From a virus (Duplodnaviria; Heunggongvirae; Uroviricota; Caudoviricetes), in the IMG/VR virus record IMGVR_UViG_2684622552_000005, positions 1 to 5,644 of that record: 5,644 bases of DNA; one strand, 5' to 3'. Made by a program: the position numbers and the translations under genes. Shown in pieces: positions 1 to 5,644 of the stretch. The first letter of the stretch is position 1. Each line of letters begins with the position of its first letter. The notes beneath the pieces are model-generated. The model had not been told where the DNA came from, made no database searches, and was given only the letters and a program-made list of their open reading frames with translations.

Positions 1-568
1 TATCGCGTCCTCAACAATGAGTTTTGTGATGCGGTGCCTGGTGCCTCCAGGTGACGTTAACCAGTTAACAATTAACGCCGGATACAGAGAATCCACCCAT
101 AACACTGTTTTTGGTTTTAACTGTTCCGCGTGCGCTTAGCCGCATTCACCGCATCACAAAATTCACTTTAAAAAGGGCGGCAGAGCAGTCACGGAGTAAA
201 ACTGATACCGCCAAACGTCACCAGAAAATTGATAACAGAGGGCGTTGCAGCGGGGTTGTCACTTAAGCGTATGGTCAACCTGACAACCCGGTGTCCTCAA
301 CGGGGGAAGGAATAACCCCGCCATACTTACCGCCGCGCCATTTCGCGGATTGCCACAACCGGAAGCGCACGGTCGACGAAAATTTAACGACAGGCTATCT
401 ATGAACCAGCTACCTCGCCGTGCGCTTTCGCGTTATGGTCTGACTTTTCAGGGAAATATCCTTTCAGTAAACTGTCAGTGCCGGATGCTCACCCGTGTCC
501 GGCGCACGCACTCCACCTCACCCGTGGAGAACTCCTTAATTACCAACCTTAGCTTCGTTGGTTAGCTA

Positions 569-787
569 TTAACGCGGGTATGTAATCATTCTGGCAATGC
601 TTAATGCCGCTGCTTTTTCCAGATTGGTGATATCCTGCTCCAGAGAGGACAGATTTTCAGCCTGCTTAGCCCTGGCTTCATTGGCCCATTTCAGATCCTG
701 CGCTGCATTAATTTTCTGGTGCATCCACTCATAAAGTTCATCATCGGTATAGTCTGGCGCGATGATGACGGGTTCTCGTTTCTGCAT
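569..787 (-). CDS. Hypothetical small prophage early-left protein (72 aa)
   Basis: ATG-initiated ORF (plus-strand cat at 785-787); GAGGAA Shine-Dalgarno 5 nt upstream on the minus strand; co-oriented with and downstream of two other small ORFs and the repressor gene. No recognisable motif. Confidence 0.5.
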   Translation of the reverse strand: MQKREPVIIAPDYTDDELYEWMHQKINAAQDLKWANEARAKQAENLSSLEQDITNLEKAAALSIARMITYPR

Positions 788-816
788 ACTGATTCCTCGC
801 GGTGCTGTTTCGCTTA

Positions 817-945
817 TCAGCCGTTAGATTTTGCCGAACTGGAAAGCGCCTGTTTAAATTCGTTGAAGCTGAGAGCTTCTTCGCCTTCGGCAAGACCTTC
901 GAAGTATTCTTCGTAAGCCTTTTCCATGATTGTGTCGAAATCCAT
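817..945 (-). CDS. Hypothetical small acidic protein (42 aa), apparently translationally coupled to the upstream ORF
   Basis: Not in the ORF track (below its length cutoff). Hand translation: MDFDTIMEKAYEEYFEGLAEGEEALSFNEFKQALSSSAKSNG. ATG at 943-945 lies 1 nt after the TGA of ORF 947-1183 (TGAtATG); AGGTGA Shine-Dalgarno 5 nt upstream. The frame stays open upstream to about 1018, so a frameshifted remnant of a longer gene is an alternative. Confidence 0.35.
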   Translation of the reverse strand: MDFDTIMEKAYEEYFEGLAEGEEALSFNEFKQALSSSAKSNG

Positions 946-946
946 A

Positions 947-1183
947 TCACTCACCTGAGTTTCTTTCCAGCCAGCGACGGGCACCATTTTCGGTTTTAAA
1001 CGTTTTGCTTTTGGTATACGTCATCGCGGTGAACGTACCGTCCTGGTTGGGGAACACGCCACATACCAGAGATTCGCTGTTGCCAAGATCGATAGTATCC
1101 ATGCTGACCTCATTTCCCCTTAACGCCGGGGTAGCGGAACAAAAACCTGCTGCATAGTTATTAAAGTTGAACCCTGCCGTCAT
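947..1183 (-). CDS. Hypothetical small prophage protein (78 aa), first gene of the leftward operon
   Basis: ATG-initiated ORF (cat at 1181-1183) with GAGG about 9 nt upstream; lies directly downstream (leftward) of the putative OL/PL region. No recognisable motif. Confidence 0.5.
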   Translation of the reverse strand: MTAGFNFNNYAAGFCSATPALRGNEVSMDTIDLGNSESLVCGVFPNQDGTFTAMTYTKSKTFKTENGARRWLERNSGE

Positions 1184-1288
1184 GTTCTTACGCCTCGGGC
1201 TGGCTACTTAACCCCTGACCACTGCCTGGTAACTCGAAGTATTGCCCTGCATTCTGTGGGGCGGGGTGGGTTGGTATGAAAAGAAGGA

Positions 1289-1325
1289 TACCCATAGGTA
1301 TTTAAAAAGTAAATACCCATGGGTA
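1289..1325. promoter_or_regulatory. Putative OL: two 12-bp palindromic operator sites (TACCCATAGGTA at 1289-1300; perfect palindrome TACCCATGGGTA at 1314-1325), likely overlapping a leftward promoter
   Basis: Seen in sequence: two sites of the form TACC-N4-GGTA with centres 25 bp apart in the 185-bp gap between the repressor gene and the leftward small-gene operon. The same motif family recurs in the repressor/ydaS divergent region. Possible minus-strand -35 TTTACT / -10 TATCCT overlapping the sites (weak call). Confidence 0.5.
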
Positions 1326-1367
1326 ACTTTTTGCGATGTCTTAACTGGTGACTAGTTGTTTGGTGAG

Positions 1368-1787
1368 CTATGATGCGTTTTGTGCTTTCTTTTTACGGAT
1401 TTCTTCGTAGATCATATTGTAATACTGTTTTTTCTCTTCAAGAGTTTTTAATAATTTATCCGCTTCACTTTCTGGCAGTTCGTCTAAGAGATCTAAAAAA
1501 ATACGTTGTCGTGGCGTTAGAACCCTTGTTTCATAACTGGAGGCTGTGTTCGTTGATGATGAAACGATACCATCCATCCATCCCCGGGGTAACCCAAAGG
1601 ACTCTTCGATAATCTCCACCATATCATCAGCGATCCGTTTTTTTCCCTTTTTCCCCTCTGGGTACAACATTCTTGATACATAAGAAGGCTCGCGCCCGAT
1701 CTTTCTGGCCACGTTAACCGCTTTACCATCGCATTTCTCATCACGAATTTTGATGAGTTGCTGTCGTCTAAATTCATATTTGTCCAT
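1368..1787 (-). CDS. Prophage immunity repressor, HTH DNA-binding protein (CI / RacR-like functional analogue; no LexA-like peptidase domain)
   Basis: 139-aa ATG-initiated ORF. N-terminal segment (KAVNVARKIGREPSYVSRMLYPEGKKGKKRI) looks like a Cro/CI-type helix-turn-helix; the C-terminal half is charged and helical (likely dimerisation). Sits divergent from a Cro-like gene and between two operator clusters, the position of a lambdoid repressor. Confidence 0.75.
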   Translation of the reverse strand: MDKYEFRRQQLIKIRDEKCDGKAVNVARKIGREPSYVSRMLYPEGKKGKKRIADDMVEIIEESFGLPRGWMDGIVSSSTNTASSYETRVLTPRQRIFLDLLDELPESEADKLLKTLEEKKQYYNMIYEEIRKKKAQNAS

Positions 1788-1807
1788 AGGTAAATAATAG
1801 ATGCGAT

Positions 1808-1862
1808 TACCGCAAGGTAAACAACCTATGGGTATTGACTTTTGTTTACCTGTGGGTATTCT
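1808..1862. promoter_or_regulatory. Putative OR/PR: three operator-like sites (TACCGCAAGGTA 1808-1819; AACCTATGGGTA 1823-1834; TACCTGTGGGTA 1847-1858) overlapping a rightward sigma70-like promoter (-35 TTGACT 1835-1840, 16-bp spacer, -10 TATTCT 1857-1862)
   Basis: Seen in sequence. The sites share the TACC-N4-GGTA pattern with the OL sites. The promoter hexamers are positioned to drive ydaS (AAGGAG Shine-Dalgarno at 1877-1882, ATG at 1888). The three-site arrangement resembles lambda OR1-3. Confidence 0.5.
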
Positions 1863-1887
1863 TTGCTGTGTTTACTAAGGAGTAGCT

Positions 1888-2169
1888 ATGGAAGAATTAA
1901 GAATATTTCTCAATTCTCTTTCGTCAGATGAACAGCGTATGTTTGCATGCGAGTGTGGTACCAGCATCGGTTATCTAAGAAAGGCATTGAGTAAAGGTCA
2001 AGTGTTAGGGGCATCGTTATGTGTCCTTATTGAGCGAGCCAGTAATGGTGAAGTTACACGTCAGCAACTAAGGCCTTTTGATTGGATGAATATTTGGCCC
2101 GAGCTGGAAGATACCAAAACGTTAACACAACCACTTTCTAGGAGCTTGATTCATGAAAATCAAGCATGA
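1888..2169 (+). CDS. ydaS: YdaS-family Cro-like HTH regulator (93 aa)
   Basis: ATG with AAGGAG Shine-Dalgarno; divergent from the repressor. C-terminal motif IERASNGEVTRQQLRPFDW matches, from memory, the conserved IERAT.GEV...LRPD..W segment of Rac YdaS-family proteins. Its 3' end overlaps the start of the next gene by 17 nt. Confidence 0.7.
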   Translation: MEELRIFLNSLSSDEQRMFACECGTSIGYLRKALSKGQVLGASLCVLIERASNGEVTRQQLRPFDWMNIWPELEDTKTLTQPLSRSLIHENQA

Positions 2170-2578
2170 ACACATCCGCATGGCGATGAATGCCTGGGCG
2201 CATCCGGACGGTGAAAAAGTTCCGGCAGCTGAAATAACCAGGGCTTATTTTGAACTGGGTATGACGTTCCCAGAACTGTATGACGACAGCCATCCGGAAG
2301 CCCTGGCTCGCAATACCCAGAAAATTTTCCGCTGGGTAGAGAAAGACACCCCTGATGCAGTTGAAAAAATTCAGGCGTTGTTACCAGCGATCGAAAAGGC
2401 AATGCCACCTTTGCTGGTGGCCAGAATGCGCAGCCACAGTTCAGCTTATTTTCGGGAGCTGGTGGAGACGCGGGAGCGACTGGTGAGAGATGCTGATGAT
2501 TTTGTCGCAGTGGCAATCGCCGGTTTCAATCAGATGAACCGTGGTGGCCCGGCAGGAAATGCTGTGGCAGTGCATTGA
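2153..2578 (+). CDS. ydaT: YdaT-family protein (141 aa), CII-like regulator / reported toxic component of the Rac ydaS-ydaT module
   Basis: Starts MKIKHEHI, as I recall for E. coli Rac YdaT. AGGAG Shine-Dalgarno 8 nt upstream. Overlaps the ydaS stop, indicating co-transcription. Family assignment is from memory and positional context, not a search. Confidence 0.7.
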   Translation: MKIKHEHIRMAMNAWAHPDGEKVPAAEITRAYFELGMTFPELYDDSHPEALARNTQKIFRWVEKDTPDAVEKIQALLPAIEKAMPPLLVARMRSHSSAYFRELVETRERLVRDADDFVAVAIAGFNQMNRGGPAGNAVAVH

Positions 2579-2649
2579 GTGATAATAGCCATATCGAATC
2601 GCTTCCGGCAACTCGTGAGTAAAAAGATTCGGTATCAGAAGAGGTGAGT

Positions 2650-3720
2650 ATGGCTAACGCCTGGCTCAGATTATGGCATGACATGCCAAATGACCCTAAG
2701 TGGCGAACAATTGCCAGGGTGTCAGGGCAGCCAATTGCAACAGTGATGGCAGTGTATATCCACCTCCTGGTGAGCGCGTCACGAAATGTCACGCGAGGTC
2801 ACATTGATGTCACGACAGAAGATTTGGCAAGTGCGCTCGACGTGACAGAAGAGGTAATTGATTCAATTTTGCAGACGATGCAGGGGCGGGTACTTGATGG
2901 TGATTTAATCACTGGATGGGAAAAACGCCAGGTGCTTAAAGAGGACAACGGTAATATTTCGCAAACCGCAAAATCTCCTGCAGAGCGCAAGAGGGCGCAG
3001 CGAGAGAGGGAAAGAAAGCGGGAACAAAATGGCGATTGTCACGGCGCGTCACGAAATGTCACGCACATGTCACGACGAGTCACGACAGATAAAGATACAG
3101 ATAAAGATACAGATCAAGAAGATCAAAACACTATGGTCCATGGCGTAAAAAACGCCACGAACCAGGCAGGGGATGTTCAGACCGTCAATCCTGGTCAGCC
3201 AGCAGGCACGACACCGGAAGCCGATTCAGCGTATGCGCTGAAAGCCGATTCGGGCGCTGTGCAGCAGGTGATGACCCAAAGGCCGGAACAATCACACCAA
3301 CTGCAGCAGCCTGAAGCCGATTCCGCCATTCAGCGGGAAGCCGATCGGGTAGTCCCGGAAAACACCGGGCTGTCTGTGGGACGAGTGGATTATCCGGATG
3401 TGTTCGAACAGGTCTGGCGGGAGTACCCGTTGCGTGCCGGAGCAAACCCGAAGAAATCCGCTTTCAGTGCCTGGAAGGCCAGATTACGCGAGGGGGTGCC
3501 ACCAGAGGCCATGCTGGATGGCGTGAGGCGTTACGCAAGATACTTGGCGGCTACCGGGAAAACGGGAACGGAATTTGTTCAGCGAGCGACGACGTTTTTT
3601 GGACCGGACCGGAATTTTGAGAACCCCTGGTTGCTCCCGGTAAGCGGCACGAACAACCAGCGTTGTGTGAATCATATTTCTGAACCGGATAACGAAATTC
3701 CGCCGGGCTTCAGGGGGTAA
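2650..3720 (+). CDS. Phage replication initiator-like protein (lambda O-like organisation) with iterons inside the coding sequence
   Basis: The ORF track starts at GTG 2644; ATG 2650 with GAGG 5 nt upstream is the more likely start. The C-terminal region (VFEQVWREYPLRAGANPKKSAFSAWKARL...FVQRATTFFGPDRNFENPW) resembles the conserved C-terminal domain of phage replication proteins. Two clusters of GTCACG repeats and an AT-rich repeat lie within the gene. It occupies the position after cro/cII analogues. Confidence 0.7.
   Translation: MANAWLRLWHDMPNDPKWRTIARVSGQPIATVMAVYIHLLVSASRNVTRGHIDVTTEDLASALDVTEEVIDSILQTMQGRVLDGDLITGWEKRQVLKEDNGNISQTAKSPAERKRAQRERERKREQNGDCHGASRNVTHMSRRVTTDKDTDKDTDQEDQNTMVHGVKNATNQAGDVQTVNPGQPAGTTPEADSAYALKADSGAVQQVMTQRPEQSHQLQQPEADSAIQREADRVVPENTGLSVGRVDYPDVFEQVWREYPLRAGANPKKSAFSAWKARLREGVPPEAMLDGVRRYARYLAATGKTGTEFVQRATTFFGPDRNFENPWLLPVSGTNNQRCVNHISEPDNEIPPGFRG
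2778..2814. repeat. Iteron cluster 1: four copies of GTCAC(G/A) at 10-11 bp spacing (2778, 2788, 2798, 2809)
   Basis: Seen in sequence: cgTCACGaaatgTCACGcgaggTCACAttgatgTCACGacag. Helical-turn periodicity is typical of initiator-binding iterons. Confidence 0.55.
3038..3110. repeat. Iteron cluster 2 (five GTCACG copies at 3038, 3048, 3058, 3069, 3079) followed by a tandem AGATAAAGATAC x2 AT-rich repeat (3087-3110): putative prophage replication origin
   Basis: Seen in sequence. The first 21 bp of this cluster (gcgcgtcacgaaatgtcacgc) are identical to the start of cluster 1, about 270 bp upstream. An iteron array plus adjacent A+T-rich tract inside the initiator gene mirrors ori-lambda inside gene O. 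Confidence 0.55.
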
Positions 3721-3760
3721 GTGTTAATTTCTGGTCATGAGGTAATTTTCAGGAGGGCTT

Positions 3761-4186
3761 GTGGCAAAAGTTTTTACACAAGAAGAGCGGGAAAAAATTA
3801 AAGGGCAGGTTGTTGAACTCGTACGCCAGAGTGGGCGCGAGACGTTACGACAACTGGAAACTAAAACTGGGGCAACAAGATATCTGATGAGCGTTCTGGC
3901 CAGAGAGCTGGTTGCCAGTGGCGATGTATACAACTCTGGTTACGGGTTATTCCCGTCTGAACAGGCGCGTAAGGACTGGCAAAATGCCCGTAAAAAGCTC
4001 TCAAGGGCAAAGCTGAAGAAACCATCTGCGGTTGATCCGGACCTTATCTGGTCATTACCTGACGGAGAAATACGTCGCTACGATAGTTGTCTAAACATAA
4101 TCTGTCGCGAGTGCCGGAAGAGCGAAGTTATGCAGCGCATTCTGGCATTTTATCAGGGAAATGTTAGGTATTTTAGACGTTACTAG
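3761..4186 (+). CDS. Hypothetical protein (141 aa) of unknown function in the slot where a helicase loader is expected
   Basis: GTG start with a strong AGGAGG Shine-Dalgarno 4 nt upstream, 40 nt after the initiator gene. No Walker A motif seen. Contains a C-x4-C-x2-C cluster (CLNIICRECRK). Composition resembles the flanking phage genes, not the AT-rich gene downstream. Confidence 0.55.
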   Translation: MAKVFTQEEREKIKGQVVELVRQSGRETLRQLETKTGATRYLMSVLARELVASGDVYNSGYGLFPSEQARKDWQNARKKLSRAKLKKPSAVDPDLIWSLPDGEIRRYDSCLNIICRECRKSEVMQRILAFYQGNVRYFRRY

Positions 4187-4276
4187 ATTAAAGGGCATTA
4201 GTTCAGATATGCATTGACATTTTCATGGCACAAGGTAGAGCTAGCGTGGTTGTTCGCTTTGTGCCAAGAGTGGTCA

Positions 4277-4372
4277 TTGATAATATTTGGGTGGGTTACA
4301 TCTGTCAATGTTTCAGGTGATATGATATACAAATAGCCAGACTTAGACTGGCATGCTGTTTATTTTTATATT
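4277..4372 (+). promoter_or_regulatory. Candidate promoter(s) for the AT-rich cargo gene: extended -10 TGaTATGAT (4318-4326) and/or -35 TAGACT (4344-4349) with 17-bp spacer and -10 TATATT (4367-4372)
   Basis: Seen in sequence within a 215-bp AT-rich noncoding stretch between the stop at 4186 and the cargo gene start. Hexamer matches are by eye and not supported experimentally. Confidence 0.3.
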
Positions 4373-4413
4373 ATGGGTGTGCCACATGGATTTAAAACTT
4401 ATTGAGATATGAC

Positions 4414-5439
4414 ATGGATACTTTTCATAATATTTTGCTTGAGCACATAGACAGCCTTTTAAAAGAGAGACTTGATTTATCTGGTGACGCTGATATCGAA
4501 AAAGAAATTAATAACCTAATTCCCAAAATAGCCATTGTCGTTAAAAAATCTCTTATTGGCTCGGCCAATGCAATGCTTAGAGAACATCGTTCTCTTTGTG
4601 ATGAATTTGTTGAGAGAAATATTTCAAGATGGGCAGAGGCTTTTGATTTGCTCGAAACACTTATAGTGATATGCACGGAGTCCGGTGAAGAGTTCAATCG
4701 TTCTTATAGACCACAAGCTGCCTCTGAAGAGGATGTGGTTTTTGATTTAGTCGTTCGGCATCACGCAAGAGCTTGCCACATCGCCAACGAAATTTTGTGT
4801 CTCTTAAAGAATGGATTTGCAGATGCTGCCCAAGCGAGATGGCGAGCACTTCATGAGGTAGCGGCCACAGCTATGTTTATAGCAAAGCATGGAAAAGAGT
4901 GTGCTGAGCGCTTTTACTACCATGAAGTGGTTGATTCATATACTGGAATGTTGGAACACAAAAAGTACGAGCACCGGTTAGAAGCAAAAGGTCCAACTAT
5001 TGAAGAAATAGCTGAGTGTAAAGTTCAATTTGATCTATTAATAAAAAAATACGGCAAAAAATATGCAGATAATTATGGGTGGGCATCTTATATTTTCCCT
5101 AACCATAATAAAGTGGGGTTTGGAGCTATTGAGAAAGATGTTCAGTTAGAACACATGCGCCCTTATTATAAGTGGGCGAGTCAGAATGTACACACCGGTT
5201 CCAAGGCAATGAGAAATAGGCTTGGTCTCTGTGAAACTGGTGATGATATATTATTGGTCGGGCAAAGTGATTCAGGAATGGCTGATCCAGCCCATGCTAC
5301 TGCTATTAGTTTGATGCAGATTACTGTGACACTTTTATTCTTAAAACCAACCATTGATCATGCCGTCATTTCAAAAATAATACAGGATTATTCTGATGAG
5401 ATTGGAAATGTATTTCTTAAAATTGATAAGGGTAATTAA
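4414..5439 (+). CDS. AT-rich cargo ORF of unknown function (about 341 aa from ATG 4414; the track start at 4402 is a TTG); candidate accessory / anti-phage protein
   Basis: Long uninterrupted ORF whose base composition is visibly more A+T-rich than the flanking prophage genes. It has its own upstream noncoding region. No transmembrane stretch, P-loop or other recognisable catalytic motif was seen by eye. One R-x6-H segment (RHHARACH, about 4756-4779) is noted only as a weak HEPN-like hint. It lies between the replication module and an IS element, a typical prophage moron/defence-island position. Confidence 0.75.
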   Translation: MDTFHNILLEHIDSLLKERLDLSGDADIEKEINNLIPKIAIVVKKSLIGSANAMLREHRSLCDEFVERNISRWAEAFDLLETLIVICTESGEEFNRSYRPQAASEEDVVFDLVVRHHARACHIANEILCLLKNGFADAAQARWRALHEVAATAMFIAKHGKECAERFYYHEVVDSYTGMLEHKKYEHRLEAKGPTIEEIAECKVQFDLLIKKYGKKYADNYGWASYIFPNHNKVGFGAIEKDVQLEHMRPYYKWASQNVHTGSKAMRNRLGLCETGDDILLVGQSDSGMADPAHATAISLMQITVTLLFLKPTIDHAVISKIIQDYSDEIGNVFLKIDKGN

Positions 5440-5518
5440 AAATTGGAAAAGTGATAGTATATTCTTGTTTTTTTTACTGGTAATTAAATGTTTTTAAAGT
5501 TACTAGTTCACACCTATC

Positions 5519-5644
5519 TGAATCGCCACGGGTTTAACAGACACCTCAGAGTCATTTAAGATGGCTTAAAGAGAGGTGCCCATGAGCGGTAAGCGTTATC
5601 CCGAAGAGTTTAAAACTGAAGCAGTCAAACAGGTTGTTGCTCAA
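5519..5644 (+). mobile_element. Left end of an IS3-family insertion sequence (putative left inverted repeat starting TGAATCGCCACGGGTTT at 5519), truncated by the window edge
   Basis: Begins with TG and is GC-rich, like IS3-family terminal repeats as I recall them. It lies 63 bp upstream of an OrfA-like start preceded by AGAGAGGTG, similar to the spacing and Shine-Dalgarno context I recall for IS3. Exact boundary is uncertain; the right end is not in the window. Confidence 0.55.
5582..5644 (+). CDS. IS3-family transposase OrfA, N-terminal fragment (continues beyond the window)
   Basis: Hand translation MSGKRYPEEFKTEAVKQVVAQ matches the characteristic N-terminus of IS3-family OrfA proteins (K-R-x-[YF]-x-x-E-F-K-x-E-A-V). 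ATG at 5582 with a GAGAGGTG Shine-Dalgarno upstream. Confidence 0.65.
   Translation, partial: MSGKRYPEEFKTEAVKQVVAQ

Follow-up and report, generated by a model that had tools for sequence, protein, structure and literature searches.

The repressor mRNA of the prophage region described here probably begins at the AUG of the repressor gene, or within 1 nt of it, transcription being driven by a promoter that resembles PRM of phage lambda; the message would thus be leaderless, and we hold this reading with good confidence. It draws on the sequence anatomy of the start region, on its conservation in relatives and on its match to the lambda geometry, from which, together with analogy to known phage systems, we infer the actual 5' end and the leaderless mode of translation. 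That temperate phages make leaderless repressor mRNAs is textbook knowledge; the design is already well known, and it is found here in an unstudied repressor family.

The window, i.e. the whole 5.6-kb stretch of DNA that was analysed, comes from a lambda-like prophage of Escherichia coli and comprises its early and immunity region. Two of its features are the following.

175-226, minus strand: the DicF sRNA
1368-1787, minus strand: the prophage repressor gene, taken from the list of open reading frames and coding for a protein of 139 amino acids (MDKYEF...)

Small genes of the ydfC/DUF1391 type also lie within the window, together with a replisome-organizer gene, a DUF977 gene, a DUF5677 gene and the first part of an IS3-family transposase. 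Of 5426 complete E. coli genomes, 822 carry the immunity segment (1250-1900), with identities of 80-99.5%, and carriers of this immunity type include O157:H7, O145, O103 and APEC O78 strains; the E. coli copies of the repressor have the same annotated start codon and are usually named 'hypothetical protein'. An exact match to the window is absent among the complete E. coli genomes, the best being 99.3% identical over positions 1-5522. A transcript-start dataset was sought for the carrier strains listed, and none was found.

The repressor matches phrog_5736 ('transcriptional regulator') over its full length (E 6.4e-70). Its N-terminal 75-85 amino acids are common to phage CI repressors of the S24/LexA type, including the cI protein of phage mEp043, and to short proteins of 135-140 amino acids. 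The AlphaFold model (pLDDT 84) consists of an N-terminal helix-turn-helix domain, a disordered linker and a short C-terminal helical hairpin; the top Foldseek matches to it, all weak, are the phage Rep protein 5D50 (E 3e-3), which is the antirepressor-controlled Rep of a Salmonella phage, and helix-turn-helix proteins of the XRE type. A Pfam search with the protein gave no match, and a sequence search of the PDB no significant one, the hits to ADAR Z-alpha domains at E about 0.08 being regarded as noise. Homology to RacR was also considered and rejected (BLASTP E 2.3), the present repressor belonging to a different family. The S24 self-cleavage domain, present in many homologues, is absent from this protein, so that RecA-stimulated self-cleavage is probably not the route of induction, a point that lies outside the main finding; in addition, since a C-terminal domain of the lambda type is lacking, cooperative binding in the lambda style should not be assumed.

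Around the start of the repressor gene the minus strand reads 5'-...gtTTTACCttgcggtaatcgcatcTATTATttacctATGGACAAA-3', and it can be divided into the following elements.

1821-1816, minus strand: -35 hexamer TTTACC (4 of 6 consensus positions), followed by a 16-nt spacer; it is also the outer arm of operator A, described below
1799-1794, minus strand: -10 hexamer TATTAT (5 of 6) of the PRM-like promoter, from the promoter scan
1793-1788, minus strand: the gap ttacct, 6 nt between the -10 hexamer and the ATG, without a Shine-Dalgarno sequence
1787-1785, minus strand: ATG start codon of the repressor gene, A1787 being the predicted +1 of the leaderless mRNA

The original prediction had described TATTAT, the 6-nt ttacct and the ATG at 1787 on the minus strand with no Shine-Dalgarno sequence, and this description is correct as written. 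Counting on from the -10 hexamer, A1787 is the seventh base; it would make +1 an A, preceded by a T at -1. No GG dinucleotide occurs in the 22 nt before the ATG, the nearest one belonging to the operator sequence GGTAA about 20 nt upstream; in contrast, the divergent cro-like gene has AAGGAG 5 nt before its own ATG. The ATG at 1787 is the first ATG, GTG or TTG past the upstream in-frame stop. Other starts for the repressor can be rejected: upstream the frame holds no further start codon, and downstream the next Met is residue 40, which falls within the DNA-binding domain. Conservation among the homologues begins exactly at M1, which, like K3, Y4, E5, R7 and R8, is invariant or nearly so. An alternative open reading frame at 1517-1777 (+1 frame) accounts only for frameshifted database variants. 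The predicted fold of the mRNA leaves its first 9 nt unpaired and shows no unusual structure in the 5' region (z -0.58). Recognition of the gene as one with a leaderless start settles its start codon.

As for the -35 region, it had been proposed that the hexamer is poor and overlaps the operators. The overlap is borne out, TTTACC being an arm of operator A, while the description as poor is not, since 4 of 6 matches are also what TAGATA of lambda has. GTTTAC, offered earlier as an alternative, has only 1 of 6 matches, and TTTACC is the relevant hexamer; indeed, the promoter scan reports exactly the site TTTACC-16 nt-TATTAT, with 9 of 12 consensus matches.

Taken by itself, this promoter match is not significant: two sites were found in 1 kb, and shuffled sequences give 2.6 +/- 1.8. 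Matches being equally common in shuffles, it could be argued that this one is a functionless chance feature of an AT-rich intergenic region. The background of the scan is about 0.0013 per position and strand, so that one would rarely expect a match to end exactly 6 nt from a given ATG; the spacing equals that of lambda, and positional conservation across genera lies far above the shuffled controls, making a chance origin extremely improbable. The decisive evidence for the promoter is this conservation in relatives, and not the match in the window.

The comparison covers 25 loci from species-representative genomes together with phage mEp043, their upstream regions being aligned on the ATG; the genera sampled are Escherichia, Yersinia, Edwardsiella, Klebsiella, Pantoea, Brenneria, Leclercia, Atlantibacter, Aeromonas, Arsenophonus and others. 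To be counted, a hexamer had to agree with TATAAT at 4 or more of its 6 positions, with A as the second base and T as the sixth, and to end 6 or 7 nt before the ATG. Such a TAnnnT hexamer precedes the conserved ATG (MDKYE...) in 19 of 22 distinct loci, against 2.0 +/- 1.3 loci when the same 22 nt are shuffled, with a maximum of 8 in 2000 shuffles. The gap between hexamer and ATG is 6 nt in 8 loci and 7 nt in 13, every other offset being found at most twice. In an alignment of 20 loci the information content is 2.0 bits at each of the positions 2 (A) and 6 (T), against 0.1-0.6 bits in the seven columns that precede the hexamer. Only these two positions of the -10 element are fully conserved, the hexamer itself varying among TATTAT, TAGAAT, TAAAAT, TATGAT and TAGACT; the spacer is 16 nt in the loci with the TTTACC layout. 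The start codon is ATG in 25/25 loci, mostly with a pyrimidine immediately before it. In the loci with a gap of 7 nt instead of 6 (13 of 24), transcription may start 1 nt before the AUG. The N-terminal extensions annotated in several database entries (MMSD-, MRA-, MLNS-) take their start from an ATG that lies within the -10 hexamer and are thus artefacts of gene calling. Seven variants of the module within E. coli show no change from the -10 hexamer up to and including the first codons, whereas they differ in the adjacent upstream spacer and in the operator centres.

A reading of the -10 element on the other strand was rejected, the TAnnnT pattern being strand-specific: TAGAAT corresponds to ATTCTA on the plus strand, where it forms no rightward promoter. 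This conserved, strand-specific pattern is the signature of a working -10 element. Two exceptions were seen. One Klebsiella locus has TAGACA, and a locus from Orbus has a clear AAGGGGGG Shine-Dalgarno sequence, the only clear one among the loci, with no -10 hexamer at the position; not every member of the repressor family, therefore, has the leaderless design.

The operators were sought over the whole window as TACC-N4-GGTA with one mismatch allowed. Six occurrences were found against 1.2 expected, and 5 of the 6 lie in two clusters, one at OL and the other between the divergent genes, where the predicted promoter PR and the cro-like gene are also found.

1808-1819: operator A, TACCGCAAGGTA, centred at -26.5, over the -35 hexamer and spacer; predicted site of self-repression, OR3-like
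1823-1834: operator B, AACCTATGGGTA, centred at -41.5, adjoining the -35 hexamer of PR; OR2-like, at a candidate activating position
1835-1862, plus strand: predicted PR, TTGACT-16 nt-TATTCT (9 of 12), from the promoter scan
1847-1858: operator C, TACCTGTGGGTA, centred at -65.5, over the spacer and -10 hexamer of PR; OR1-like
1888-2169, plus strand: cro-like (YdaS-like) gene, with the Shine-Dalgarno sequence AAGGAG at 1877-1882
1289-1300 and 1314-1325: the two OL operators, TACCCATAGGTA and TACCCATGGGTA, left of the repressor gene

Transcription from PR is predicted to start near 1868-1870, about 82 bp from A1787, and the ATG of the cro-like gene (1888) is 101 bp from that of the repressor (1787). 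The cro-like protein matches phrog_35 'transcriptional repressor' (E 4.8e-23) and reaches 25.8 bits with the Pfam family YdaS_toxin (PF15943), below the cutoff of 30; RefSeq calls some of its copies 'YdaS family helix-turn-helix protein'. Operator C, which overlaps PR, and operator B, which adjoins it, are predicted to control the divergent PR and the cro-like gene as well. On the repressor mRNA the OL operators form a 16-bp hairpin followed by UCCUUCUUUU (fold -22.9 kcal/mol, z -6.2), and the hairpin (1289-1325, minus strand) is probably the terminator of the repressor transcript.

In most of the related loci operators are found at about -27, -42 and -67, and the -42 site matches the motif with at most one mismatch in 15 of 25. 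The arms of operator A are perfect in 20 of 22 loci, and operator B has one imperfect arm in 13 of 15. The central 4 bp follow the pattern YRYR (pyrimidine-purine-pyrimidine-purine) in operator C of all 23 loci scored and in operator B of 13 of 15, and in operator A of a single locus out of 22. The centre of operator A would thus be unconstrained or deliberately different despite its perfect arms, and the distribution of YRYR fits an ordered filling of the operators, for which it is suggestive and not proof. A further operator-like sequence lies over the start codon (1781-1792; TACC-TATG-GACA on the minus strand, with one perfect and one poor arm); it is absent from mEp043 and from the other genera and may be due to chance.

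The arrangement can be compared with that of lambda (NC_001416), where TAGATT is followed by the 6 nt taacgt and the ATG, the -35 hexamer is TAGATA (4 of 6), OR3, OR2 and OR1 are centred at -19, -42 and -66, and the ATG of cI is 101 bp from that of cro. The two systems are alike in the 6-nt gap, the missing Shine-Dalgarno sequence, the -35 hexamer with 4 of 6 matches, an operator inside the promoter, the divergent PR and the distance between the two ATGs, and the centres of operators B and C differ from those of OR2 and OR1 by no more than half a base pair. Conversely, the sequences of repressor and operators are unrelated to those of lambda, the sites being 12-bp TACC-N4-GGTA here and 17 bp in lambda; operator A covers the -35 hexamer, its centre being displaced upstream by 7.5 bp relative to that of OR3; the spacer has 16 nt instead of 17; and the window repressor is without an S24 or cooperativity domain, while the role of CII is taken by a YdaT protein.

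Among sequenced phage isolates the closest relative is mEp043, whose cI is 65% identical over the N-terminal 86 amino acids. The layout upstream is the same (TTTACC, 16 nt, -10 hexamer, 6 nt, ATG), with TAGAAT as the -10 hexamer instead of TATTAT and with the same operator motif at -26.5, -41.5 and -66.5. The mEp043 cI gene, however, is 687 nt long (about 228 amino acids); the similarity does not extend past about residue 86, and an S24 domain is found in homologues of this size. A literature search found no published promoter mapping for cI or the immunity region of mEp043.

Leaderless repressor transcripts have been mapped in prophages with a related organization. In CP-933P of E. coli O157:H7 the paaR2 transcript starts at the AUG by 5' RACE, in agreement with N-terminal sequencing of the protein (PMC8630535). 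This prophage shares with the window a repressor gene, divergent YdaS-like and YdaT genes and the same YdaT operator motif at the ydaS/ydaT junction. The N-termini of the two repressors differ (MQKKE... in PaaR2, MDKYE... here), as do their operators, those of PaaR2 being palindromes of the GTTTAGTAA type, and paaR2 is followed by a toxin-antitoxin pair, unlike the present module. In the Rac prophage of E. coli K-12 three racR promoters were located by primer extension, the leaderless PracR3 being the strongest (PMC9638921); the repressor gene is again divergent from ydaS-ydaT, whereas the intergenic region is longer, with several promoters and nine proposed binding sites. The cI gene of PY54 is also leaderless (PMC4488713). 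The original analogy with lambda PRM thus holds wherever the sequence can speak to it, i.e. for the gap, the missing Shine-Dalgarno sequence, the AUG, the conserved -10 hexamer and the operator positions, and it is in line with the leaderless PaaR2 and RacR transcripts.

A second transcript across the repressor gene is suggested by two features on the far side of the cro-like gene.

2146-2163: YdaT (CII-like) operator, TTGATTcatgaaAATCAA, at the ydaS/ydaT junction, an exact match to the motif
2153-2578, plus strand: gene of the YdaT family (Pfam YdaT_toxin, PF06254), functional equivalent of CII

The YdaT assignment reaches 39.6 bits in Pfam (cutoff 21), with close matches to the PDB entries 3C4R (E 1.8e-91) and 8BT1 (E 9.9e-81), the latter a solved structure of a YdaT domain. 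The operator motif TTGATT-N6-AATCAA has been published and its role in CP-933P described (PMC9986795, PMC8630535); it occurs exactly once in the window, 0.03 occurrences being expected by chance. Its presence at 2146-2163 makes a second, PRE-like repressor transcript with a long leader likely, as in lambda and in CP-933P, where a YdaT-dependent PRE promoter is present (PMC8630535). A leftward PRE-like promoter is thus probable near the YdaT operator; the promoter search found no consensus PRE promoter near it, as would be expected of one that depends on an activator. An upstream 5' end arising from this transcript would add to the leaderless promoter and would not by itself contradict it.

It might be supposed that leadered transcripts of this kind, YdaT-dependent or from other upstream promoters, are the main or the sole source of the repressor, the AUG being recognised internally without a Shine-Dalgarno sequence, e.g. 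through the A/U-rich sequence upstream, and TATTAT being incidental or minor. The exact YdaT operator does predict such a leftward transcript across the repressor gene, by comparison with CP-933P (PMC8630535), and racR has two more upstream promoters beyond the leaderless one (PMC9638921). This supposition, however, leaves unexplained why TAnnnT is kept 6-7 nt from the ATG in 19/22 loci while its neighbours drift; moreover, in a lysogen PR is repressed and little YdaT would be available for the PRE-like promoter, and for both RacR and PaaR2 the leaderless promoter is the main or the mapped one. Leadered transcripts are therefore likely as an additional route and unlikely as the sole one, and we consider the supposition as a whole improbable.

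On the preferred, leaderless reading, sigma-70 RNA polymerase would use TTTACC-16 nt-TATTAT and start at or within 1 nt of A1787, giving an mRNA that begins with AUG, is translated without a Shine-Dalgarno sequence and probably ends at the hairpin of the two OL operators (1325-1289). Dimers of the repressor would bind the TACC-N4-GGTA operators. Repressor at C (-65.5) and B (-41.5) would close the divergent PR and the cro-like gene; when bound at B it would adjoin the -35 hexamer, where lambda CI at OR2 activates PRM, and when abundant it would also occupy A (-26.5), over the -35 hexamer and spacer, and lower its own promoter. During the establishment of lysogeny, the YdaT-activated leftward promoter near 2146-2200 would probably supply the long-leader transcript. 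The filling order and the activation in this scheme are inferred.

The original prediction also held that the promoter needs activation by bound repressor, and with this the geometry is no more than consistent. The PRM-like promoter and the predicted PR have equal consensus scores, so that the sequence gives no indication that the former depends on activation, and TTTACC is invariant because it is an arm of operator A. The position of the -35 hexamer within operator A predicts repression from A at least as firmly as activation from B, and activation is no more likely than net negative autoregulation. The promoter could accordingly be leaderless and constitutive, only negatively autoregulated via operator A and perhaps via the operator-like sequence at the start codon. 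Its 9/12 score, equal to that of PR, its -35 hexamer inside an operator whose arms are perfect in 20/22 loci and a repressor without a lambda-like C-terminal domain all point in this direction. Against it, operator B is conserved at -41.5, the position of OR2 in lambda; YRYR is missing from A alone (1/22), which fits a deliberately weaker site that is filled last; and PaaR2 at low level raises its own leaderless promoter, PRM933P, about 4-fold, repressing it at high level (PMC8630535). A leaderless promoter that is only repressed is for us a strong contender, with a little less than an even chance, and as between a promoter activated at low and repressed at high repressor and one that is only negatively autoregulated, the two stand about level.

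A broader reading can be put forward tentatively. A widespread, unannotated domain family of the CI type (MDKYE..., with no Pfam model) might have kept, or reached, a switch that matches the lambda OR base for base, with a leaderless -10 hexamer 6-7 nt from the AUG, operators at -42 and -66 and 101 bp between the start codons, although its proteins and operators are unrelated to those of lambda. Its N-terminal domain occurs in two combinations, one with an S24 domain and the other, represented here, with a short helical hairpin; the hairpin type would be released by an antirepressor and not by RecA. Taken jointly, these propositions are possible and on balance doubtful. If they were true, the geometry of the switch would be the conserved unit and the proteins interchangeable, and the operator inside the promoter would be tuned to be weak through its non-YRYR centre and not through its arms.

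For the prophage itself, recognition of the repressor predicts the operators and an immunity specificity common to phage mEp043. The general picture of temperate phages is unchanged by one more leaderless repressor start; the repressor of this module offers a third, independent family in which the construction of lambda-like switches may be compared.

The three predicted TACC-N4-GGTA operators between the divergent repressor and cro-like genes, A (1808-1819), B (1823-1834) and C (1847-1858), were compared with the homologous sites of related loci (L002-L025). A pyrimidine-purine-pyrimidine-purine (YRYR) step occupies the central 4 bp of all 23 C sites and of 13 of the 15 B sites, and is found in only one of 22 A sites; site A, nearly devoid of such centres, is the operator that overlaps the promoter. 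Both arms are perfect in A and C, while most B sites carry one imperfect arm. At the centre of operator B (about 1827-1830, minus-strand reading) the window has CATA, as against CACA in four of six further E. coli copies in the sample; among complete E. coli genomes none is identical to the window over 1700-1900, the best reaching 99.5%. The further elements considered here are the following:

175-226, minus strand: the small RNA DicF (RF00039 in Rfam, 76.7 bits)
1289-1325, minus strand: two OL operators forming an inverted repeat
1781-1792, minus-strand reading: operator-like TACC-TATG-GACA, spanning the repressor start codon
2146-2163: YdaT operator TTGATT-N6-AATCAA, an exact match to the published motif (PMC9986795), overlapping the ydaT start codon
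5523-5644: first part of a transposase gene of the IS3 family (MSGKRYPEEFK...)

The operator-like sequence at the start codon is confined to the E. coli type and absent from the lambdoid phage mEp043 and from other genera; it may be due to chance, or it may represent a fourth site, through which the repressor would repress itself. On the rightward side, alignment of the E. coli O157:H7 copy (L035, Z1767) revealed TTGGCT as the -35 hexamer of the predicted promoter PR, where the window has TTGACT (1835-1840), a possible PR-down mutation of that prophage.

On the leftward side, the OL inverted repeat is predicted to fold on the repressor mRNA as a hairpin of 16 bp (fold energy -22.9 kcal/mol; z -6.2), followed by UCCUUCUUUU; thus, a single DNA stretch may have a double role, as operators of PL and as terminator of the repressor transcript. 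The exact YdaT operator points to an establishment promoter of the CII/PRE type, from which the repressor gene would be expressed.

Within the replisome-organizer gene (2644-3720), GTCACG-type repeat clusters were noticed by eye at about 2776-2817 and 3045-3087, exemplified by gcgtcacgaaatgtcacgc, which occurs twice; they look like origin iterons. The best-matching E. coli prophages align to window 1-5522 only and lack the transposase start; the IS3-family insertion is peculiar to the source strain.

As for the repressor itself (1368-1787), some E. coli database proteins (P0010, P0019) begin with MNLDDSNSSKF... in the overlapping +1-frame ORF 1517-1777 (minus strand) and later enter the repressor frame; these entries represent frameshifted repressor genes. 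The N-terminal DNA-binding domain is common to many Enterobacterales repressors with an S24 self-cleavage domain, and the length of mEp043 cI fits this longer form. In the window repressor, the N-terminal domain is followed by a short helical hairpin in place of S24, and its top structural match is 5D50, the antirepressor-controlled repressor of a Salmonella phage; together, these features suggest that induction of the window prophage is independent of repressor cleavage.
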